From Spirochaetia bacterium (lineage in GTDB: Bacteria > Spirochaetota > Spirochaetia > SZUA-6 > Bin103): DNA of 64,000 nucleotides. The notes under the pieces were generated by a model, which did no database searches, was not told where the DNA came from, and saw only the letters and a program-made list of their open reading frames with translations. The stretch spans positions 864,001-928,000 of the forward strand of contig CBDBOV010000006.1 in NCBI GenBank assembly GCA_965208575.1, read 5' to 3'. Shown here piece after piece: positions 14,092-40,812 of this stretch. The number at the start of each line of letters is the position of its first letter. Position 1 is the stretch's first letter. The position numbers and the translations under genes are program-made.

Positions 14092-14300
14092 GCGTCTCTC
14101 CTCTGGATGCTCTCCGAGCCTGTCGGGGTGTGACAGGCCCGTAGTATAGGCCGGTTGCGGACGCCAGTCCGCGACGCGGTTCGGCGGGAAACGCGCCTCC
14201 CGGCGGCACCGGGAGCGCCAGGACGCAGGTCTCGGGCGCCGGCGAGCGCGTCGTCCGCCGCCCGCACACCCCCCGGCTGGCCGCCGCGCTGCACCGCGGC

Positions 14301-14390
14301 GCGTCGGCGTGGCTCGGCGTGGCTCGGCGTGGCTCGGCGTGGCTCGGCGTGGCTCGGCGTGGCTCGGCGTGGCTCGGCGTGGCTCGGCGC
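14301..14390. repeat. 10-bp VNTR (GGCTCGGCGT)n
   Basis: 7 perfect copies at 14311-14380 plus one imperfect copy on each side. Confidence 0.97.
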
Positions 14391-14402
14391 GGCGGGCGAC
14401 CG

Positions 14403-14432
14403 TTGACAGGGCGGGAGGAGATCGAATAGGGT
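14403..14432 (+). promoter_or_regulatory. Putative sigma70 promoter for the SBP gene
   Basis: TTGACA-N18-TAGGGT. Confidence 0.5.
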
Positions 14433-14749: not shown

Positions 14750-16546
14750 GTGACTATGAATCGCTACACAACTGTACTCATCGGCATCCTGGTGTCCACC
14801 GCAACCGTGCTGTGGGCAACCGGAGAGGCGGAGGGGACAGCCGTCATGGAACAAGAGATGGTGCAGAACTGGCTCGGTGAAACGGTGCCGAAGCCGCAAC
14901 ATGGCGGCGTGCTCAACATCCCGACCGCGTTCACGGCGGTGGACTCCTGGGACCAGTGGCGCTATCACCAGACCGGAACGCCGTTTACCGCCAGTATCTA
15001 CCAGGCTTTCGGAGCAATCGACATCAGGACGCCGATCGAGGACAACCAGTTCCAAAGTGCCATGTTTACCTGGGATCAGTGGTACGGCATCATCGCCGAG
15101 AGCTGGGAGCAGGTCGATCCCCTGACCCTCACCATCGGCGTCAGACAGGGCATAAAGTGGCAGAACAAGGAACCGATGAACGGTCGCGAACTGACTGCCG
15201 ACGATGTCGTCTTCACGCTGCACCGGCAGTACGGCCTGGGCAGCGGCTACACCGAAAAGAGCCCGCACCTCGGCGACGTTCACGTGGAATGGTTCGCCGG
15301 CGCGGAGGTAACCGCTCCCGACCGCTACACGGTCAAGATCGTAACCACCGAGCCGCGACCGTTCCTGGCGTTCGCCACCATGTGCTTTGGTTGCGGCTTC
15401 GTCATTCAGCCGCCGGAAGTCGTCCAGCAATACGGCGACCTGGAGGATTGGCGCAATGCGGTCGGTACCGGAGCCTGGATGCTGGTCGACTACGTGCCCG
15501 GCTCCAAGGTGCAATATGCGCGCAATCCCGACTACTGGGAGAATGATCCGCGCTATCCGGACCAAAACCTTCAACTACCGTACGCAGACGAGCTCAATGT
15601 CCTCATGATACCGGACGAGTCCACGCGCATGGCCGCATTGCGGACCGGCAAGGTGGCGATGGCCGGCGGTTCACAACAGAATATCGACTGGCGGACCGCG
15701 GAGAGTCTGCAACAGACGAATCCCGAGTTGGGCTACCTCGAGGTGGCCGGATCGGGAGGCAACGCCTGGGGCTTCAGCATGCGTGTCGACCGGGAGCCGT
15801 TCGACGATATCCGGGTGCGGCAAGCCATGGCGATGGCCGTGAACACGACGGAGATCGCAGAGGACTACTACGGCGGCAACGCGGAAGAGTATCCTTATGC
15901 CAAGCTGTCGTTGCCATGGCCCAAGCAATACATCAAGGCGATCGATTGGTTTACCCCTGAAGTCCAGGCCACGTTCGGCTATGACCCGGAGGCGGCGAAA
16001 CAGCTTCTCGCGGAGGCCGGCTACGCCGACGGCTTCAAGACCGATATGCCGATTTCCGCCGTAATGGACCTCGAGTTGTATGAGCTTGCGGTCAGCTACC
16101 TGGCGGCGGTCGGTATCGACGTCGACATCAGAGTGATGGAGCACGGTGTCTACAAGGACATCGAATATGCCGCCGAATACGACGGGATGTTCTCTCAGTA
16201 CGACCCGATGTCGGTGCTGCCTCCGTATCACGTCCTGAGCTGGTACCAGACCGGCATAGGGTGGAACGCCAGTCAGGTGAGCGACCCGGTGTATGACAAC
16301 CTGCGGCTCGCCGTATTGAAGGAAACCGACAAGGAAAAGCAGGATGAAATGTTCCACCAATTGTACGCGATGCCGTACGAGAATACGTGGATCATTCCGT
16401 TTGCCCTGGCCAAGGAGTTCGTGTTCTGGCAGCCATGGCTCAAGCACTTCCGCGGCGAGGAAAAGACCCACGGCTGCGACCAGAAGCTGAACGTCATGAA
16501 GTACGTCTGGATCGACCAGCAACTGAAAAACGAGATGGGCCACTAG
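14750..16546 (+). CDS. ABC transporter family-5 (DppA-like) solute-binding protein 1
   Basis: Signal peptide; motifs AESWEQ, VGTGAW, RNPDYW, IRVRQAM, LLAEAGY; SD GGGAGG. Confidence 0.93.
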   Translation: MTMNRYTTVLIGILVSTATVLWATGEAEGTAVMEQEMVQNWLGETVPKPQHGGVLNIPTAFTAVDSWDQWRYHQTGTPFTASIYQAFGAIDIRTPIEDNQFQSAMFTWDQWYGIIAESWEQVDPLTLTIGVRQGIKWQNKEPMNGRELTADDVVFTLHRQYGLGSGYTEKSPHLGDVHVEWFAGAEVTAPDRYTVKIVTTEPRPFLAFATMCFGCGFVIQPPEVVQQYGDLEDWRNAVGTGAWMLVDYVPGSKVQYARNPDYWENDPRYPDQNLQLPYADELNVLMIPDESTRMAALRTGKVAMAGGSQQNIDWRTAESLQQTNPELGYLEVAGSGGNAWGFSMRVDREPFDDIRVRQAMAMAVNTTEIAEDYYGGNAEEYPYAKLSLPWPKQYIKAIDWFTPEVQATFGYDPEAAKQLLAEAGYADGFKTDMPISAVMDLELYELAVSYLAAVGIDVDIRVMEHGVYKDIEYAAEYDGMFSQYDPMSVLPPYHVLSWYQTGIGWNASQVSDPVYDNLRLAVLKETDKEKQDEMFHQLYAMPYENTWIIPFALAKEFVFWQPWLKHFRGEEKTHGCDQKLNVMKYVWIDQQLKNEMGH

Positions 16547-26761: not shown

Positions 26762-27017
26762 GTCGATCGCCGGGCCGCCCACGCCGTTCTCGTCGACCGC
26801 GACCGTGCCGGATCCCCACCTGCGATACCCCCGGCGTTGCCGGCCATTCAGACTCGCTGCTTCGCCGACTACCGCCGCGCGCGGTGTTGTGACCCAGCTC
26901 CCGACCTCCGGCGAGCGGTCGGCGTCTGCACGATCGGGAGCACACCCGCTGCGTGCACCGCACCCCATCTTACGTCTATTGCCGGCCCGAGACAGGCAGC
27001 TTCCGTCACGCATCTGG

Positions 27018-27229
27018 CAGGGCACCCTGTGCCCCATGTGAGGAGGTGCAAATGAAACTCAAAGAACCGCACGCGCGCGCGGCGTGAGCCCGGGTGAACC
27101 CGGATGAGTCACACGCCGCGCGCCTCACAAATTGACGCAGACTGGCCGTCCGCGTTGCGGGCCCGAGAGTAGCCAGGGAGCGGTACTCCGCTACGCAATA
27201 CTCTCGAAATAACATTCAAGGAAGAAACG
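27018..27229 (+). promoter_or_regulatory. Conserved structured 5' leader L1 with uORF
   Basis: SD GGAGGT, uORF, 12-bp stem 27075-86/27112-23, second domain 27142-27206; homologs at ~40620 and ~59090-59300. Confidence 0.75.
27052..27087 (+). CDS. Putative leader peptide MKLKEPHARAA
   Basis: AGGAGGT SD; conserved in three leaders. Confidence 0.55.
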   Translation: MKLKEPHARAA

Positions 27230-29038
27230 ATGAAGATATCTTTCACAAGGACCTTCGCGGTTGCGTTGGTCCTCGTCCTGACCGCAACCGGCCTGTGGGC
27301 TGCTGGCGCAGAAGAAGAGGCACCGGCAGCCGCTGCCGACAAGCAGTATGTCACCGACCCCACCACCGGCAAGGTAGTGGTGGCGCCCCAGTACGGCGGG
27401 ACATTAACCGCCGGTAATACTTCGACCATTGGTTCTGGGGGTCCTAATGACCCCTATTTCGGCAATCCGTGGGGCCCAGGAGGGACGGCCGTCAATGAGA
27501 GGCTTGGTATCGGGAACTGGGGATTAGATAGAGACGTATTTGACTTTAAGTTGGCCTTCGTCCCTCTGTCTGCCCTAACGGGGAGGCTGGCTGAAAGCTG
27601 GGAAATTTCCCCGGACGGCCTCACCTATACCTTCAACATCCGCAAGGGCGTTAACTGGCAGAACAAGGCACCGATGAATGGGAGGGAATTCACTGCGGAT
27701 GATGTCGTATTCAACTTTCACCGTTATCTGGGTCTGGGCGACTTCACCGAAGCCGGACCTAGCACCTATAGTGGCGCTGCCAGCTTCATCTCCATACCGT
27801 TCGAATCGGTAACGGCCACCGATAAATATACGGTTGTGATGAAGCTGAAGGAGCCACAACTCGATGCGCTGGAGATTATCCTCAACGACCCTGCTACAAA
27901 TATATTGCCCCCCGAGGTAATCGAGCAACATGGCGAGTATCAGGATTGGAGGATCCTGGTCGGCACCGGACCCTTTATGGTGACTGATTTAGTCGAGGAG
28001 AGCAGCATCACCTGGACCAAGAATCCTGACTACTGGGGCTATGACGAAAAGTACCCGCAGAACCGCTTGCCCTACGTTGACCAGTTAAGGCGACTGGTTA
28101 TTCCAGAGGAAGGAACAATTATGGCGGCACTACGCTCAGGCAAGCTTGATTTCAGAATGCATGCCCCATCAGATATCGACTCGATAGAGAGCCTGCAGCG
28201 GACCAACCCCGAAATCGCGGCGCACCCGATTTATTTTCGGTCGAGTGATTCTTTTGCTCCTAATCATCGCGTGCCGCCCCTTAGCGACCTCAACGTGCGC
28301 CGCGCGATGCAGATGGCGCTGGACAACGAGACTGTTGCGCGTACGTACTGGAAGGGTTGGGCAGATCCGACACCTCACGGGCTGGTAGGGTTGACAGGGT
28401 ATTTCATCCCCTTCGAGGAATGGGACGAAGAGGTCAAGCAATACTACCGGTATGACCCGGAAGCTGCCGAGAAGCTCCTTGATGAGGCTGGGTATCCGCG
28501 CGGCGCGGACGGCATTAGACTCAAGACCGCCCTGAATCACCACCCAGGGGCAGGCTTAGACTATGCAGAAATAGCTGCCTCCTACTGGGCTGAGATTGGC
28601 ATCGAGGTTAAGATTGATGCGGGTTCCGCCCCCGAATGGGTCGAGAAGATATCCTCTCGTACTTATGAAGGCATGCATAGTGCCATTGCGGGCGCCGGGT
28701 ATGCCCCTCTCTTGATGGCAGGCTGGTATCACTCGGATGCGGGGCCGATAGGGAACCGCGGCGGATCCCAGTGGCCTGAGATGGACGCCATGGTTGACGC
28801 CGCCCTAGCCGCTACTACTGAGGAGGAGCAGAAGAGGCTGATTGCAGAGGCAGATATGTACGCGATAAAGAAGCACTGGCTGATATTTGGTCCTAAAACT
28901 GCATCTTTTCATTTTGCCCAGCCGTGGGTCATAGGCTATAGCGGTGAATCTCCAAGTGGTTTGGGCCGAACAGAAGATTATACCGTCATGGCCCGCCTCT
29001 GGATTGATAGCGAGCTGAAGGAGGCAATGGGTTATTAG
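27230..29038 (+). CDS. DppA-like solute-binding protein 3
   Basis: Motifs APQYGG, LAESWEISPDG, VGTGPF, KNPDYW. Confidence 0.94.
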   Translation: MKISFTRTFAVALVLVLTATGLWAAGAEEEAPAAAADKQYVTDPTTGKVVVAPQYGGTLTAGNTSTIGSGGPNDPYFGNPWGPGGTAVNERLGIGNWGLDRDVFDFKLAFVPLSALTGRLAESWEISPDGLTYTFNIRKGVNWQNKAPMNGREFTADDVVFNFHRYLGLGDFTEAGPSTYSGAASFISIPFESVTATDKYTVVMKLKEPQLDALEIILNDPATNILPPEVIEQHGEYQDWRILVGTGPFMVTDLVEESSITWTKNPDYWGYDEKYPQNRLPYVDQLRRLVIPEEGTIMAALRSGKLDFRMHAPSDIDSIESLQRTNPEIAAHPIYFRSSDSFAPNHRVPPLSDLNVRRAMQMALDNETVARTYWKGWADPTPHGLVGLTGYFIPFEEWDEEVKQYYRYDPEAAEKLLDEAGYPRGADGIRLKTALNHHPGAGLDYAEIAASYWAEIGIEVKIDAGSAPEWVEKISSRTYEGMHSAIAGAGYAPLLMAGWYHSDAGPIGNRGGSQWPEMDAMVDAALAATTEEEQKRLIAEADMYAIKKHWLIFGPKTASFHFAQPWVIGYSGESPSGLGRTEDYTVMARLWIDSELKEAMGY

Positions 29039-30995: not shown

Positions 30996-31270
30996 CGACC
31001 GAGAGTGGAGACGGTGCGAGGCAGCCCGCCGTACCGACAGATCGCGAACACGGAGAGAAATCGGAAAAAAGTTGCGCGTACCCCTTGACGCGATTTTCGG
31101 TGCCCATAAGCGCCCGCCACGGCCCGTGGCGGCCCCGCCGACTCTCCGAAAACGACTCGGCCTCCGTGGACGCGGCAGCGCGCCGCTGAGCGGCGCTCCG
31201 GGCGCCGTTTCACCGCCATCGAGGACTCGAACGAATCAGCTATTTTCAATCCCATGGTATACTTATGAGT

Positions 31271-33220
31271 ATGAGTGAAGCGCCTTCCGCCACTTGGTCC
31301 ACCGTTGCCGCGCTCCCCGATCACGTCCTCCTGGCGCAGACCGCGCAGCTCGCCCGCCACGAGCAGGCGCTGCAGATCCTGGTCCTCGACCACCTGCGCG
31401 AGATCGAGGCGCGCCGCCTCCACCTGACCCGCGGCTACGGGAGTTTGTTCGACTACGTAGTGCATGAACTGGGCTACACCGCGGCCGCCGCCTGGCGGCG
31501 CATCAAGGCGATGCGGCTGTGCGACCAGACCAGCGGGGCGCGCGAACTGCTGCAGGACGGCTCCCTGAACCTGAGCAACGCGGCGCAACTGCAGAACCTG
31601 TTCGAGCGCAGCGACCGCAGCCGGGGCCGGCCACAGGGCAGTGACGCGACCGGTGGCGGCCAAGGCGGGACGCCGCGGAACGACGGCGCATCGGGGGAAC
31701 CGGCACCGGCTGCACCGAAGCGCCCCGGTGAGTCCGACGCGGCGCCGGTACCCGGGCCGGTGCTGGACGCGGCGGCGCGGGAGGAACTGGTCAGGCAGGC
31801 GGCGGGCAAGAGCACCCGCGAAGTGCAGCAGATGCTGGCCGAGGTGGACCCGGAGCTGGCGCAGCCGAGCGACCGGATGCGCGCACTCGCAGGAGGGCGC
31901 TGGGAGTTGAAGGCGACGATCGACACGGAGTGCCGGCACGGCCTGGAGAAGCTGCAGATGTTGCTGTCGCACACGGACCCGCACCTGACGCTGGGCGGAC
32001 TCATCGCGCGGCTGGTGCGGGACGGCCTGGACCGCTACGACCCGGCGCGGCCCCGGGGCACGCGGGGCACCGGCGGTCGCGGCTCGGTCAACGGCGCGCG
32101 AACCGTGAGCAAGCCGGCGCGGCGCGATACGGAAACGGTGCAGCAATGCGCGGTGCGCGGGCGCGGGAGCGATGTCGAACGGCAGAGCGAAGTCGTGCAG
32201 GGTGACGCACCGTCCGCGACCGTGCGGGATGTGGTGCCCGCTTCGGCGCCGAAGCGCCCCTTGGAAGCCGGGCACGGCAGCGCGTCACCGGCGACGGCAC
32301 CCAACAACGGCGGGCACACGACTTCGGCGCGGAAGCGCGCCTCGGAAGCCGAGCACGGCAGCGCGTCACCGGCGACGGCACCGAACAGCGGCGACCACAC
32401 CATTTCGGCGGCGAAGCGCCACGAGCAAGCCGAGTTCGGTCGCACTTCCCGTGCGGCGGCGGGGGTCGGCAGCGGGCGGGCCGCTTCGCCGGCGAAGCCG
32501 TATACGGAAGCCGAGGCCGGCAGCACGAAGTCCGCGGTGGTGCGCAGCAGCGGCGGGCACACCACTCCGCCGGCGAAGCAGGTCGCGCAGGATGAGGACG
32601 CGCACATCGAGGTAGCGGAGCGCCTTTGTGGCGCCGCCGTTCCCGCGCCGGACCGCCGTCGGGAGACCGAGCAGGCATGCGGGCAACCGAAGGCCATGCA
32701 CGGAAACGGCGGCCGGGCTGCTTCGCCGGCGAACCGGCCAGGGCGGGCCGACGACGATGGCCGGGGCGCGGCGGGAGCGCAGTTCGATGCCGGCAAACGC
32801 GGCGCTTCGCGGGCACCGGTACGGGGCCACGACCGGTTCACGAGTTCGGCGGCGGAGCGGCTGGCGTACGCAGCCGGGCAAGGCGCGGTGGAGCGGTCGC
32901 CGGCCCTGGCGCGGCACCTCGCCGCGTTGAACGGCTTCGGCGCGTCGCCGGGCTCCCGCTCACGGTACATCCCGGTGGCCGTGCGGCGCGAGGTGTGGCG
33001 CCGCGACAACGGTTGTTGCAGCTATGTCGACCCGCACAGCGGCCGGCGCTGCGGTTCCCGCTATCGGCTGGAGATCGACCACGTGGTGCCGTTCGCGCTC
33101 GGCGGCGCTACCGAGCTGTGGAACCTCAGAATTCGGTGCCGTGCCCACCACAGGTTGCGCCACGCTCCGCGCCATGCCCACCCGGCGAGTGTGCCGAGTG
33201 AGAACCCGGGCGCACCGTGA
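31271..33220 (+). CDS. DUF222-like HNH endonuclease with a central repeat region
   Basis: N-terminal HLREIEARRLH..GYGSLFDY; C-terminal VRREVWRRD..C..C..LEIDHVVPFALGG..NL..C..HH; TATACT 7 nt upstream. Confidence 0.85.
   Translation: MSEAPSATWSTVAALPDHVLLAQTAQLARHEQALQILVLDHLREIEARRLHLTRGYGSLFDYVVHELGYTAAAAWRRIKAMRLCDQTSGARELLQDGSLNLSNAAQLQNLFERSDRSRGRPQGSDATGGGQGGTPRNDGASGEPAPAAPKRPGESDAAPVPGPVLDAAAREELVRQAAGKSTREVQQMLAEVDPELAQPSDRMRALAGGRWELKATIDTECRHGLEKLQMLLSHTDPHLTLGGLIARLVRDGLDRYDPARPRGTRGTGGRGSVNGARTVSKPARRDTETVQQCAVRGRGSDVERQSEVVQGDAPSATVRDVVPASAPKRPLEAGHGSASPATAPNNGGHTTSARKRASEAEHGSASPATAPNSGDHTISAAKRHEQAEFGRTSRAAAGVGSGRAASPAKPYTEAEAGSTKSAVVRSSGGHTTPPAKQVAQDEDAHIEVAERLCGAAVPAPDRRRETEQACGQPKAMHGNGGRAASPANRPGRADDDGRGAAGAQFDAGKRGASRAPVRGHDRFTSSAAERLAYAAGQGAVERSPALARHLAALNGFGASPGSRSRYIPVAVRREVWRRDNGCCSYVDPHSGRRCGSRYRLEIDHVVPFALGGATELWNLRIRCRAHHRLRHAPRHAHPASVPSENPGAP
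32241..32735 (+). repeat. In-frame 81-bp (27-aa) tandem repeats anchored on a palindrome
   Basis: CTTCG-N4-CGAAG-like cores at 32241, 32322, 32403, 32484 and 32565, with degenerate units to ~32721. Confidence 0.8.
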
Positions 33221-33489
33221 AGTCGCATGACGCGAGCCGTCGCGCCGGTACGTGATCGCGCCATCGTGGAGACCTGTGACGCCACGCATGATCGCGCCGC
33301 CGCTCCAGCTCGCATCGCCTTCGCAGTCTCCCTCGCTACGATGTGGATGCTATCTGCCTACCGCTTCACGCATGCGGCGCGAGCCTGCAAATCCTGCGTT
33401 CCCCAGAGCCGCAAGACCGGCGCGGCGCCGCTAGTTGGTCCCGAGAAGGCTTGACGCCTGCGCGCACCTGCGCTACCTCTACCAGCAGG

Positions 33490-34047
33490 ATGCGAGCGTC
33501 AGACCTGATCCTGTACATCCTGCAGTACCGGCCGCTGCCGACGACCAAACTGGTGAAGTTGCTGTATCTCGTCGATCTCGCCTGGGTGCAACTCACCGGG
33601 AAGCCGTTGACCAATCTCCCGTATATCTGGTACCTGCGCGGTCCTTACTGTGACGAGATTGAGGCTGCGCTATGGGACCTGGAGGATGAGCGAGCCGTAA
33701 CCGTCACGTCGGGCACGACGCAAGACGGGCATGATTACACGCTGTATAGGGCTGCGACTGATCTCGCCGAGCATGTCGGTCCCGAAGTGGAGAAGGTTGT
33801 GAAGTACATTGTGCGCCGCTTCTCCGACATGAAACTGCAAACCCTGCTCGATTACGTGTACGCGACGCCGCCGATGGCTCAGGTTCAAACAAGGGGCGAG
33901 AGGTTCGTGAAGCTGGACCTCGAGCTGGATCCGAAGCGGCGGTTCAGTCGGGACGACGTCCTGTCCATACTTGATCAGCAGCTCGCCGCCGACACTGCCA
34001 AGCGCGTGCCCGGCGACGAGGTGATGAACAAGCTCGGCCTCGATTGA
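33490..34047 (+). CDS. Panacea/DUF4065 (SocA-like) antitoxin
   Basis: TKLVKLLYLVD...GKPLT...Y...RGPY; LLDYVYATPPM. Confidence 0.8.
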   Translation: MRASDLILYILQYRPLPTTKLVKLLYLVDLAWVQLTGKPLTNLPYIWYLRGPYCDEIEAALWDLEDERAVTVTSGTTQDGHDYTLYRAATDLAEHVGPEVEKVVKYIVRRFSDMKLQTLLDYVYATPPMAQVQTRGERFVKLDLELDPKRRFSRDDVLSILDQQLAADTAKRVPGDEVMNKLGLD

Positions 34048-35443: not shown

Positions 35444-35831
35444 AGAGTTTTTAGGGATTCTTGCCTCATGCCGACGACGCTCGACCATAGCACTCAGCGC
35501 TGTCACCAGTTGACGCAGTTGGTTACGCCCCCCCCCGGAGATCGAAGGACTCGGTAGGGCCTGACCGCTCACCGCGCCGCGTCCGTATCTTCCACGTTGC
35601 CGGCGGCGGCGCGGTTCCCGTAGACAGCCACATCCATCACACCACGCCCGCCCGCGGCGGCGGCCGCGGGGCACCCTCAGCCCTGGCAGCCAGCCACGAG
35701 CCGCCAGGCCCCGGGGCGACCACCCGCACCCTGCGAACCAGACGGAGTTTCCGGCCGGAGTTTCCGGCCACACATCAAACAACACGGGTACCGGGATGCA
35801 TCCCGATCCCGAGAACGAGGAGGAGTACGTT

Positions 35832-37622
35832 ATGACTCCAAAACTCATTGTACTGTCACTGGCGTTCGCGCTGGTGGCTGTCGTTACGTTCGCCAGCGCC
35901 GACGCCGAAGAGGCGGGCGCGGCGATGGAGAAGGAGATGGTGCTCGACCCCACCACCGGCGAGATGGTGCTCGCCCCCGAGTACGGCGGGACCTTGACCT
36001 ACGCCAACAATCAGGAGCCGCCAAACAGTGACATGTTTGTTGGGTCGCTGACTGCGGGATGGGCCATTTCGGGGGTGCTTGAGAAACTCAGTGTCGCCGA
36101 CTGGGGCGTGGACCGGAGTGTGAACAACCTGCGCAACGAGTATCTCTCGGACGATCAACTGAGACCGGCGCTGGCGGCAAGCTGGGAGAACCCCGATCCG
36201 AACACGTATATCTTCCACATCCGCCAGGGTGTGCACTGGCACGACAAGGCCCCGATGAACGGCCGGGAATTGACTGCTGAGGATGTCGTGTTCAACTATC
36301 ACCGGGCAACGGGGATGGGCAGTGGCTTCAGTAAACCCGAGGAGCTGAGCAGCCAACTCCCGACCCTGGAATACGAATCGATCTCGGCGAGCGACCAGTA
36401 TACGGTCGTTGTCAAGTTGGAGAACCCCCGCCTCGATGCGTTCCGAGTGCTGGTCGAAGACAACGTCGGCTTTATAGCACCCCCCGAGGTCATCGAGCAG
36501 CACGGCGATCATTCGGATTGGCGGAACCTGGTCGGCACCGGGCCGTTCGAGCTGACGGATTGGGTCGACGGCTCGTCGCTGACCTGGACCAGGAATGCGA
36601 ACTACTGGGGCACTGACGAGAAGTACCCGCAGAACCAGTTGCCCTATATCGACACCCTGAGATTACTGGTGATGCCGGACGAGGCATCCCGCCTCGCGGC
36701 CCTGCGTTCGGGGAAGGTGGACTACATCGGTCACAACGCCGGCTCGTCGATCAAGACCCCGGACGCGGTCGAGAGCATCGAGCGGACCAACCCCGACCTC
36801 AATATCTGGCCGTACTATTTTCGCTCGAACGCCGGTATGGCCTATGACGTGACCAAGCCGCCCTTTGACGATATTCGGGTCCGCAAAGCCCTGCAGATGG
36901 CCGTGGATGTCGAGACTATCAACGACACCTACTACAAGGGATTGGCGGTGGCGACTCCGCAAGGCAACCTGGGCAACTTCCAAACCGCGTTTGCCATCCA
37001 CTATGACGACTGGCCTGAAGAAATAAAAGCCGGCTATCGGTACGACCCCGACGCCGCAGAGAGGCTGTTGGATGAGGCCGGGTATCCGCGCGGTGAAAAC
37101 GGCATTCGGTTCAAGACACCTATGGATGGCACCACCTATGCCGCCTTCAATGCCGATTATTTCGACATCGTCAGAGACTACTGGAGCAAGATTGGCGTCG
37201 GAACAGAAATGGCGCTCCATGAAATAACGGCGTGGGCCGCTCGCGCTCAGAAGCGTGAGTTTGAAGGGATGAGCTGGGCGATAGCAGCTGGCCCTTATCA
37301 TCCTTTGAACACCCTGAACACGTTCACCTCCGGCTTCACCTGGAACAAGGGTGGAGTGAGTGACCCGAAGTATGACGCCCTCTATGAGTCGATGAGAACC
37401 GCTCAAACTGCGGAGGAGTTGGGGAATTACGCCAAGCAGGCCGATCTCTACGCGGTTGCCCAGCACTGGCAACTCTTTGGACCCGTTGAACCTTCGTACA
37501 ACGTCACCCAGCCATGGCTCAAGGGTCACATCGGAGAGTTCTACATGGGGGTATGGAACAAGAATGCCGTCTACGCCCGCGTCTGGATCGATCAGGACTT
37601 GAAGGAAGAAATGGGCTTCTAA
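35832..37622 (+). CDS. DppA-like solute-binding protein 4
   Basis: SD GAGGAG; motifs APEYGG, LAASWE, VGTGPF. Confidence 0.94.
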   Translation: MTPKLIVLSLAFALVAVVTFASADAEEAGAAMEKEMVLDPTTGEMVLAPEYGGTLTYANNQEPPNSDMFVGSLTAGWAISGVLEKLSVADWGVDRSVNNLRNEYLSDDQLRPALAASWENPDPNTYIFHIRQGVHWHDKAPMNGRELTAEDVVFNYHRATGMGSGFSKPEELSSQLPTLEYESISASDQYTVVVKLENPRLDAFRVLVEDNVGFIAPPEVIEQHGDHSDWRNLVGTGPFELTDWVDGSSLTWTRNANYWGTDEKYPQNQLPYIDTLRLLVMPDEASRLAALRSGKVDYIGHNAGSSIKTPDAVESIERTNPDLNIWPYYFRSNAGMAYDVTKPPFDDIRVRKALQMAVDVETINDTYYKGLAVATPQGNLGNFQTAFAIHYDDWPEEIKAGYRYDPDAAERLLDEAGYPRGENGIRFKTPMDGTTYAAFNADYFDIVRDYWSKIGVGTEMALHEITAWAARAQKREFEGMSWAIAAGPYHPLNTLNTFTSGFTWNKGGVSDPKYDALYESMRTAQTAEELGNYAKQADLYAVAQHWQLFGPVEPSYNVTQPWLKGHIGEFYMGVWNKNAVYARVWIDQDLKEEMGF

Positions 37623-40623: not shown

Positions 40624-40812
40624 GGAGGTGCAAGTGATACTCAAAGAACCGCACCATGCGCGCGGCCCGAGTTCATGACGCTCATGCCGCGCGCATGACC
40701 ACCAGGGATTGCCGCCGCTGTCTGGCCGCCTGCGTTGCGGGCGCGAGAGTGGCAGGGAAAGGCAACTCGCTCGGAGAGCACTCTCAGAATCTCAGATATG
40801 GGAGAGATCAGT
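40624..40812 (+). promoter_or_regulatory. Conserved structured 5' leader L2 with uORF
   Basis: GGAGGT, uORF, 12-bp stem 40655-66/40686-97, GTT-loop hairpin, gagagtg/cactctc pairing. Confidence 0.7.
40634..40678 (+). CDS. Putative leader peptide MILKEPHHARGPSS
   Basis: GTG start after GGAGGT; LKEP conserved. Confidence 0.5.
   Translation: MILKEPHHARGPSS

Follow-up and report, generated by a model that had tools for sequence, protein, structure and literature searches.

Positions 27142-27206 of a 64,000-nt stretch of the genome of a Spirochaetia bacterium (assembly GCA_965208575.1, contig CBDBOV010000006.1, positions 864,001 to 928,000; the whole stretch is referred to below as the window) form a real, conserved and pseudoknot-capable RNA domain in the leader of a transporter gene. 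The domain is the 3' part of a leader of about 190 nt that precedes three genes for SBP_bac_5 binding proteins of ATP-binding cassette (ABC) transporters in the window, and it is best read as the central part of a cis-acting RNA, specific to its lineage, that leads family-5 binding-protein genes of ABC transporters. More than 100 distinct copies, belonging to two subtypes, show selection on the fold; the subtypes share the same topology, one of the helices (P1) having a different sequence in each. An initial annotation, made from the letters of the window, had proposed the stretch as a riboswitch candidate; the structural side of that proposal is considered first, and its regulatory side after the distribution of the leader has been described.

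Covariation of the leader in two subtypes

The three leaders of the window (L1 to L3; Table 1) display the same order of parts, namely a Shine-Dalgarno sequence (SD1), an upstream open reading frame (uORF), a GC hairpin (SL1), a linker with a TTGAC-like motif, the pseudoknot domain, and an A-rich stretch holding a second Shine-Dalgarno sequence (SD2) and the ATG of the gene. The domain that had first been singled out is therefore part of a larger unit, as conservation in the three-leader alignment begins about 100 nt further upstream, at 27040. Within the domain, helix P1, hairpin P2 and a helix that crosses P1 can be read in all three copies, just as the initial annotation had described them. 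P1 is CTGGC/GCCAG in L1 and L3 and bulged in L2, the stems of the GTT-loop hairpin P2 differ among the three copies and still pair in each, and the strands of the GAGAG/CTCTC helix interleave with those of P1 and carry a compensatory change from A-U to G-C at the end of the helix between L1 and L2. This last description requires one correction, since one position of the crossing helix in L3 is a G.G mismatch. An additional hairpin, AGCGG/CCGCT (P3), is present in L1 and L3, again as described, and is weak in L2. A search with the gapped motif returned one match against 0.01 expected, and the whole L1 leader folds better than its shuffled versions (z = -3.67).

Larger alignments of the first subtype support the same helices. 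When 63 distinct copies were aligned with MAFFT, 92.0% of the cells were paired and 11 pairs displayed two-sided changes, and none of 500 shuffles reached any of five measures; in an alignment of 85 distinct copies from several genomes, based on a covariance model of the 3' domain of the leader (hereafter R1), the corresponding values were 92.8% and 13 of 25 pairs, with no shuffle out of 500 as high on all five measures, although the copies are paralogs and their kin, so that the shuffle counts overstate significance. Controls in which the strands were slid paired in 34-50% of the cells. Since the crossing helix is absent from the structure of R1, the 85-copy alignment was not fitted to it. 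Across the R1 helices, G.U pairs exceed A.C pairs about three-fold (135 versus 44), which fits an RNA read from the strand of the gene; in P2 the 85 copies contain 30 U.G wobbles at each of two positions, a pattern that is sense-strand-specific. P3 extends to as many as 7 bp in other copies, and its innermost pair is GC in 45, GU in 27, AU in 3 and CG in 1 of them. Sequence conservation in the loops and helices far exceeds that of the downstream genes: in 959 of 1022 paralog pairs, where the proteins are 30-55% identical, the best coding alignments reach 68-70% identity and the leaders about 79%, indicating that the leader is under stronger constraint than the genes that follow it.

R1 scarcely picks up (E = 0.05-3), and misaligns, the leaders of further subfamilies within the same protein family, whose members are 45-52% identical to those of the first. 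As R1 was too weak a detector for this second subtype, a separate model (R2) was built. A search by base-pairing rules revealed that the second subtype keeps the topology of the first, with a P1 of 7-9 bp and of different sequence (for example CCCUCGC/GCGAGGG, CCGUCGC/GCGACGG or CCCGCGC/GCGCGGG; 97.5% paired), an inner hairpin and the strand (C)GAGAGUR, followed with no linker by the 3' strand of P1, a loop containing CGGCA..UGAA and finally YACUCUC(G). In the copies resolved with a GAGAG-type helix by a constrained helix finder, the end of the knot lies 16-25 nt from the ATG. Among 16 distinct sequences of this subtype 90.9% of the cells are paired and 10 pairs display two-sided changes, and among 42 distinct sequences from at least seven genomes the values rise to 91.5% paired and 14 of 22 pairs covarying, with none of 500 shuffles as high. 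Here too the crossing helix lies outside the search model and nevertheless covaries, its terminal pairs being UA in 21 and CG in 13 sequences at one end, and AU in 16 and GC in 16 at the other. Given that both P1 and the crossing helix covary in two divergent subtypes, both are real and selected. The covariation on which the initial annotation had made its proposal depend is thus present in the sets of 63, 85 and 42 copies, and the motif is indeed tied to 5' leaders, nearly all of its copies lying directly before binding-protein genes. The two helices interleave with a junction of 0 nt, a loop 1 of at least 17 nt and a loop 3 of about 20 nt, as in H-type pseudoknots, and their formation together, with coaxial stacking, is sterically plausible.

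The fold does not correspond to a known RNA family. No match at the gathering threshold was obtained in the window with the 4227 models of Rfam 15, and a scan of positions 26950-27260 by E-value yielded three sub-threshold matches only, including two to miRNA-precursor families (E = 4.4 and 10). The sole Rfam alignment over the domain itself, to the osmY RNA (RF03036; positions 27149-27232, + strand), scored 14.7 bits against a gathering threshold of 46.9 (E = 0.6) and is at chance level. Likewise, 15 leaders of the second subtype had no Rfam match at E <= 1. The initial annotation had judged the domain to fit none of the SAH, glycine, ykkC, ZTP or HDV-like consensus structures. No description of the motif was found in the abstracts and matched passages of the literature, PMC11109978 included, supplementary files being outside this scope. 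Cis-regulatory 5' leader RNAs are a known kind, and within it the element makes up a new class of pseudoknot leaders; what is unusual about it is the number of copies per genome, the modular build in which a Shine-Dalgarno sequence with a mini-uORF is combined with a hairpin and a pseudoknot, and the tie to a lineage-specific gene expansion.

Table 1. Parts of the leader and its three copies in the window (two-sided, both partners of a pair changed; percentages and pair counts refer to the 85 R1 copies unless noted)
Feature	Positions	Strand	Remarks
SD1, GAGGAGG	27040-27046	+	Ribosome-binding site of the leader uORF; G-rich core conserved in 73 copies; 5-6 nt before the uORF start
Leader uORF, 11 codons	27052-27087	+	MKLKEPHARAA in L1 (consensus MILKEPHARAA); stop inside the SL1 5' arm
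SL1	27075-27123	+	Predicted; 12-bp GC helix, 27075-27086 with 27112-27123, enclosing a small hairpin at 27090-27103
Linker	27124-27141	+	TTGAC-like motif at 27132-27136, conserved in alignments
P1 5' strand, CTGGC	27142-27146	+	Pairs with 27172-27176; 91.7% paired, 4 of 5 pairs two-sided
P2, GTCCGC-GTT-GCGGGC	27148-27162	+	Conserved GUU loop; 98.4% paired, 3 pairs two-sided
Crossing (pseudoknot) helix, 5' strand, GAGAGTA	27165-27171	+	Pairs with 27199-27205; 93.3% paired, 4 of 7 pairs two-sided
P1 3' strand, GCCAG	27172-27176	+	Abuts the crossing-helix 5' strand (0-nt linker)
P3	27177-27194	+	Core AGCGG-TACT-CCGCT at 27179-27192; 88.2% paired, 2 pairs two-sided
Unpaired GCAA	27195-27198	+	Between P3 and the crossing-helix 3' strand; at least 90% conserved in 63 copies
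Crossing helix, 3' strand, TACTCTC	27199-27205	+	Ends 24 nt before the ATG in L1
Ribosome-binding region	27206-27232	+	A-rich, weakly structured; SD2 AAGGAAG at 27218-27224, ATG at 27230
SBP_bac_5 gene behind L1	27230-29038	+	Solute-binding protein; Pfam PF00496, E = 4.2e-70
Leader L2	40624-40815	+	SD1; uORF 40634-40678 (GTG start, 14 aa); hairpin; knot domain 40714-40792; gene start 40813; R1 match G000:C6:904714-904792
L2, P1	40722-40726, 40752-40755	+	CTGGC with bulged G-CAG
L2, P2	40727-40743	+	
L2, crossing helix	40745-40751, 40779-40785	+	GAGAGTG with CACTCTC
Leader L3	59084-59280	-	uORF 59265-59230; knot domain 59182-59104; gene start 59086; R1 match G000:C6:923104-923182 (-)
L3, P1	59174-59170, 59144-59140	-	CTGGC with GCCAG
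L3, P2	59169-59153	-	GGCGCGC-GTT-GCGCGCC, exact match
L3, crossing helix	59151-59145, 59117-59111	-	GAGAGGA with TGCTCTC
L3, P3	59137-59124	-	

Gene family, copy number and distribution

The three genes of the window encode SBP_bac_5 proteins (PF00496) of about 600 aa and are followed by permease genes; the L1 protein resembles nickel, dipeptide, oligopeptide and opine binders of NCBIfam, in each case below threshold. The genome of the window (6.5 Mb in 6 contigs, 95% complete; G000 in Table 1) contains many more copies of the leader. A BLASTN search with the leader returned 61 hits, nearly all of them directly before paralogs of about 600 aa with the same signal-peptide-like N-terminus, and R1 finds 60 places at E <= 0.01, 57 of which are at E <= 3.4e-10. 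As many as 130 binding-protein N-termini were located by TBLASTN, 60 of them behind an R1 leader. R2 adds a further 27 places, which brings the genes with a pseudoknot leader of either type to about 87 of the 130; in two other genomes (G001 and G005) R2 matches 50 and 55 places, respectively.

Outside this genome, R1 has matches in 7 of the 10 other species of its genus (1 to 81 copies per species) and in none of 13 species of the sister genus. Across 92 genomes of the order, the matches of R2 are confined to the family of the source genus and one genome of another family. Those in the sister genus are weak (E = 1.7e-4 to 4e-3) and precede distant SBP5 genes; they overlap a promoter-like TTGACG-N17-AAnGnT at the would-be 5' strand of P1, can fold as a plain long hairpin, and are at most possible remote relatives of the leader. 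Two other hits, L177 and L178, lie within other sequence and are apparently due to chance. When 185,579 species genomes were scanned for an exact 22-nt core of the leader, it was present only in one metagenome-assembled genome (MAG) of the Spirochaetia and in one 4-kb contig binned as Acidobacteriota. The latter (L208; JAPPFQ010000701.1, 4047 nt) has low coverage and is probably a mis-binned fragment of a spirochaete of the source genus. The sequencing runs that hold the locus are mostly labelled as sponge or marine metagenomes.

The leader and the expansion of the gene family go together, as two complete genomes of the same genus that lack the leader have 8 binding-protein matches each, versus at least 133 and at least 152 in two leader-bearing genomes. 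The protein family itself reaches further: binding proteins that are 59-68% identical to that of the window and have no such leader occur in unrelated MAGs, one of them assigned to the Dehalococcoidia (L030, L033 and L034) and others of low GC content annotated as 'MAG: bacterium' (L031, L035, L036, L041, L051 and L052), which suggests that the family has moved between co-occurring bacteria. The Dehalococcoidia copies are preceded by in-frame VVKE/VEVPGETV-like repeats. A different conserved leader stands before the SBP5 gene at position 35796 of the window (35680-35833) and before many of its paralogs at about 20 other loci of the genome; it consists of hairpins GGCCGGAGTTTCCGGCC and GGGTACCGGGATGCATCCCGATCCC-like, followed by GAGGAGGAG, and includes no pseudoknot of the type studied here.

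Ribosome loading and candidate roles of the leader

The module upstream of the knot constitutes a ribosome-loading site that is recurrent in both subtypes. In the first, the aligned uORF start is ATG, GTG or TTG in 60 of 72 R1 copies, 48 of these 60 encode 11 aa, and MILKEPHARAA is the commonest peptide (28 copies); in 72 of 73 copies the start codon opens with A, G or T, and its T and G are fixed. Variation in codons 4-6 (K-E-P) amounts to 0.03/0.00/0.12, 0.03/0.00/0.22 and 0.01/0.01/0.18 at the first, second and third positions, and this nearly exclusive third-position variation is the signature of a peptide that is translated and selected. In the second subtype, a GGAGG-like Shine-Dalgarno sequence with a start codon 3-10 nt on and a mini-ORF was recognized in 29 of 49 leaders (versus 8% of shuffles), some of the remaining leaders having Shine-Dalgarno sequences that the search pattern missed. 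These mini-ORFs are start-stop ORFs of one codon (10 leaders) or have three (12), five (1), six (1) or eight codons (5, M.P.TGYD), and the peptide is therefore not common to the two subtypes. Three leaders of the second subtype (L151, L180 and L181) have the Shine-Dalgarno sequence and mini-uORF beginning GGAACCGGGTGCCACCCAAGAA tandemly duplicated two to three times upstream of a functional-looking uORF, and in two others (L150 and L195) an insertion of 1 nt breaks the MPPQTGYD frame while the TACGACTGA end is kept.

The hairpin into which the uORF runs, SL1, is paired in 96.8% of the cells in 71 copies. Its sequence is nearly invariant, so that it gives no covariation evidence either way (2 pairs with two-sided changes, a level attained by 369 of 500 shuffles). 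Three sequences had suggested that the SD1 region and the linker form a long-range helix, which did not reappear with 27, and a scan for sigma-70 promoters found no -10 partner for the linker TTGAC of L1. On the minus strand, the uORF region together with the 5' arm of SL1 (27066-27086) reads as a hairpin followed by a T-rich run, a terminator-like feature that may block antisense transcription or be a coincidence.

Downstream of the knot, the region up to the ATG is A-rich and weakly folded (minimum free energy mostly -1 to -7 kcal/mol, mean z of -1.1 in 48 copies). A conserved hairpin that would hide SD2 or the AUG was sought there, and only weak, non-conserved structures were seen (mean probability of a paired AUG, 0.57); a scan of the leader found no intrinsic terminator on the sense strand. 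The leader thus possesses the conserved, covarying and structured 5' domain that is expected of a riboswitch in general, and misses the textbook expression platform, given that there is no terminator, that the ribosome-binding site is open, that pairing to the Shine-Dalgarno sequence is weak and that no further conserved helix was detected. Judged as a leader-peptide attenuator, it has the conserved Shine-Dalgarno sequence, start codon and short ORF, and the terminator scan and RNAalifold on 27 leaders found neither a terminator/antiterminator pair nor an alternative that sequesters the Shine-Dalgarno sequence. Summed over contigs from four metatranscriptome runs, depth is high across the leader and its gene, at 650-2770 from 27024 onwards, and only near zero to about 50 in the intergenic stretch before it (26862-27023). 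These depths derive from contigs only, with 93% likeness allowed, and uncovered parts are uninformative; as the leader is moreover multi-copy, the step at 27024 is not readable as a transcription start, and the data indicate weakly that leader-like sequence occurs in RNA libraries.

We tentatively regard the leader as a translation-level cis-regulatory RNA in which the pseudoknot serves as a recognition or sensor module and the uORF adds a dependence on ribosomes, a reading to which we would give slightly less than even weight. The transcript strand can adopt an H-type pseudoknot in which P1 and GAGAGUA/UACUCUC can stack, with P2 in loop 1 and P3 in loop 3; this fold ends 16-25 nt before the start codon with the A-rich ribosome-binding site left open, and it would hold the GC-rich and pyrimidine strands off that site. 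The knot would recognize one shared cellular input, be it an RNA-binding protein, the ribosome or a small molecule, and this input would tune translation initiation of the binding protein, and thereby the life of the mRNA, in most members of the expanded regulon. By opening the GC hairpin, ribosomes that load at the uORF would contribute a translation-dependent layer. A shared trans-acting partner acting at translation initiation is suggested by the fixed distance between knot and ATG, by the near-invariant crossing helix and the conserved unpaired GUU and GCAA, and by a constraint on the leader that exceeds that on the genes. Protein-recognized mRNA pseudoknots (rpsO/S15 and alpha-operon/S4 of E. 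coli, and gene 32 of phage T4) are similar in that an H-type knot with sequence-conserved helices lies at the 5' edge of a ribosome-binding site. Those knots are single-copy autoregulatory sites that contain the Shine-Dalgarno sequence and/or the start codon, whereas the one described here lies entirely upstream and serves dozens of paralogous transporter genes.

A number of observations weigh against the leader being a regulator of this kind. A switch in which the UACUCUC strand would pair with the Shine-Dalgarno sequence is barely above chance (-4.3 versus -3.4 kcal/mol in shuffles), while the crossing helix itself contributes about -9 kcal/mol; nor was a mutually exclusive alternative structure seen, and RNAalifold adds no long-range helix in 27 full leaders. 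Covariation cannot tell whether P1 and the crossing helix form simultaneously or alternate. P1 of 7-9 bp and a crossing helix of 7-12 bp, as the second subtype has them, seem stable enough to form with no ligand, and some copies of this subtype lack P2 (L154 and L159) or have GAGAG before P2 (L144, L153 and L037). Six intact genes of the first subtype carry leaders without part of the knot, three having lost the 5' strand of the crossing helix and kept its 3' strand (L058, L059 and L088) and three being truncated after P2 (L067, L068 and L089). CsrA (PF02599) has no match in the 95%-complete genome and no candidate binding protein was identified; of 47 copies only 2 have a promoter consensus upstream of the uORF, at distances of 121 and 233 nt; and the RNA depth is confounded by the multi-copy leader. 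Of the proposal that the domain is a ligand- or protein-sensing aptamer for transporter genes, the conserved and covarying 5'-leader RNA stands, and the sensing role is unproven.

If the leader functions as we propose, most of the binding proteins for nutrient uptake in an uncultured lineage of marine symbionts are under the control of a single RNA fold, a new pseudoknot class would join the orphan cis-regulatory RNAs, and the leader would exemplify a regulatory RNA amplified along with its gene family. The combination of a strong Shine-Dalgarno sequence, a mini- or start-stop ORF and a pseudoknot may reveal how many paralogous transporters are coordinated or boosted post-transcriptionally. 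With more than 100 distinct natural variants, the leader also offers an unusually rich set for structure modelling and for the hunt for ligands or partners. A bolder version, which we consider unlikely, would make the knot an aptamer, or the docking site of a dedicated regulator, for one nutritional or host-derived signal that switches about two-thirds of the some 130 binding-protein genes, with the MILKEP peptide as a second, ribosome-based input. If that were true, a regulon-wide RNA switch of about 87 to more than 130 copies per genome would have arisen with the gene expansion in a spirochaete lineage of sponge metagenomes.

A possible, though somewhat doubtful, alternative is that the leader is constitutive and structural: the knot and the hairpin would sense nothing and would insulate the A-rich ribosome-binding site from the GC-rich RNA upstream, while a ribosome parked on the uORF would protect the 5' region from endonucleases, resulting in a high and stable output of binding protein relative to the permease genes. 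The stable helices, the open ribosome-binding site, the lack of a switch partner or terminator and the intact genes behind incomplete knots are all consistent with this, and the second subtype, with its strong Shine-Dalgarno sequence and its start-stop or three-codon ORFs, cannot read an amino-acid signal. However, a constitutive leader leaves unexplained why GAGAGU/ACUCUC, GUU, GCAA and both arms of SL1 are nearly invariant among paralogs whose coding divergence is saturated, and the promoter consensus, rare as noted above, does not place its 5' end. Precedents exist nonetheless. According to passages of the respective report, initiating ribosomes on a strong Shine-Dalgarno site protect the hbs mRNA in Bacillus subtilis (PMC5737220), and related leaders are treated in parts of the reports on STAB-SD and hbs (PMC4113751), on bacterial start-stop sites (bioRxiv 10.1101/520783) and on upstream ribosome-binding sites (PMC13285730). 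STAB-SD, hbs, start-stop sites and upstream ribosome-binding sites share with our leader a strong Shine-Dalgarno sequence and a very short or start-stop ORF in the 5' leader, at which a ribosome sits without making a functional protein; here, in contrast, the module is joined with a conserved GC hairpin and a pseudoknot, and the peptide of one subtype looks selected. RNase Y, which the genome encodes (C5:760620-762131), counts in favour of the constitutive reading. Against it counts that RNase J (family TIGR00649), the 5' exonuclease held off in the B. subtilis precedent, yielded no match in the 95%-complete genome. Were the leader only a constitutive stabilizer, it would still be a useful natural high-expression leader, of modest general interest.

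It is decidedly unlikely, in our view, that the knot is a strict small-molecule riboswitch, that is, an aptamer for a metabolite or second messenger of the nutrient state whose ligand would stabilize the knot and switch translation of the whole set. H-type pseudoknots beside the ribosome-binding site are a common riboswitch architecture, and the H-type riboswitches SAM-II/V, preQ1, fluoride and guanidine-III resemble the leader, in that a compact knot directly precedes the start codon of a gene for transport or metabolism, loop nucleotides are conserved, stems covary and a terminator is absent. The complexity of the fold, its conserved unpaired nucleotides and variable peripheral stems, its consistent place in the 5' leaders of transporter genes and the lack of a match to any known family all accord with such a function. 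Unlike in those riboswitches, though, the Shine-Dalgarno sequence here lies outside the knot, the loops hold the extra hairpins P2 and P3, a Shine-Dalgarno sequence and uORF module stands upstream, and a single genus accounts for all but weak hits, with about 87 to more than 130 copies per genome. In addition to the missing expression platform, the two subtypes have strongly different loops and the crossing helix in common, and the genes behind the roughly 87 copies are divergent paralogs, presumably with different substrates.

Control centred on the uORF, in which a ribosome on MILKEPHARAA would stall, by way of the nascent peptide or at termination, and would set the state of the GC hairpin, to be relayed to the downstream fold, is more improbable still. 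It would account for the preservation of the start as ATG, GTG or TTG and for the third-position-only variation in K-E-P, which argues for selection on the peptide, as well as for the position of the stop codon within the hairpin's 5' arm in 48 copies of equal length out of 60. But the other subtype carries unrelated ORFs of 1-8 codons, or none detected (20 of 49), 12 of the 72 R1 copies lack an aligned start, 27 leaders offered no alternative pairing between the knot and the freed arm of the hairpin, and the uORF stop lies 143 nt from the main start. Finally, that the likeness of the leaders is a by-product of gene duplication or conversion, or reflects a site acting at the DNA level, is scarcely credible and already largely refuted by covariation: all copies do belong to one expanded gene family, SL1 does not covary, the linker contains TTGAC and the sister-genus relatives have their promoter-like sequence over the would-be P1, but compensatory changes occur in four helices and two subtypes, G.U exceeds A.C, the leader is more conserved than coding DNA, and the second subtype keeps the topology with different P1 sequences.

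Other features of the window

Upstream of a further SBP5 gene, at 14750, lies a tandem array (14284-14403) of about 9-12 copies of the 10-nt unit TCGGCGTGGC, belonging to repeat family D10. Just after the first transporter cluster come an ORF of 651 aa (31265-33220) with a C-terminal HNH endonuclease domain and one of 234 aa (33343-34047) with a SocA/Panacea antitoxin-like domain. In that cluster, the second permease gene has a low-scoring match that covers only positions 2-95 of the 184 in the permease domain profile, its first half.

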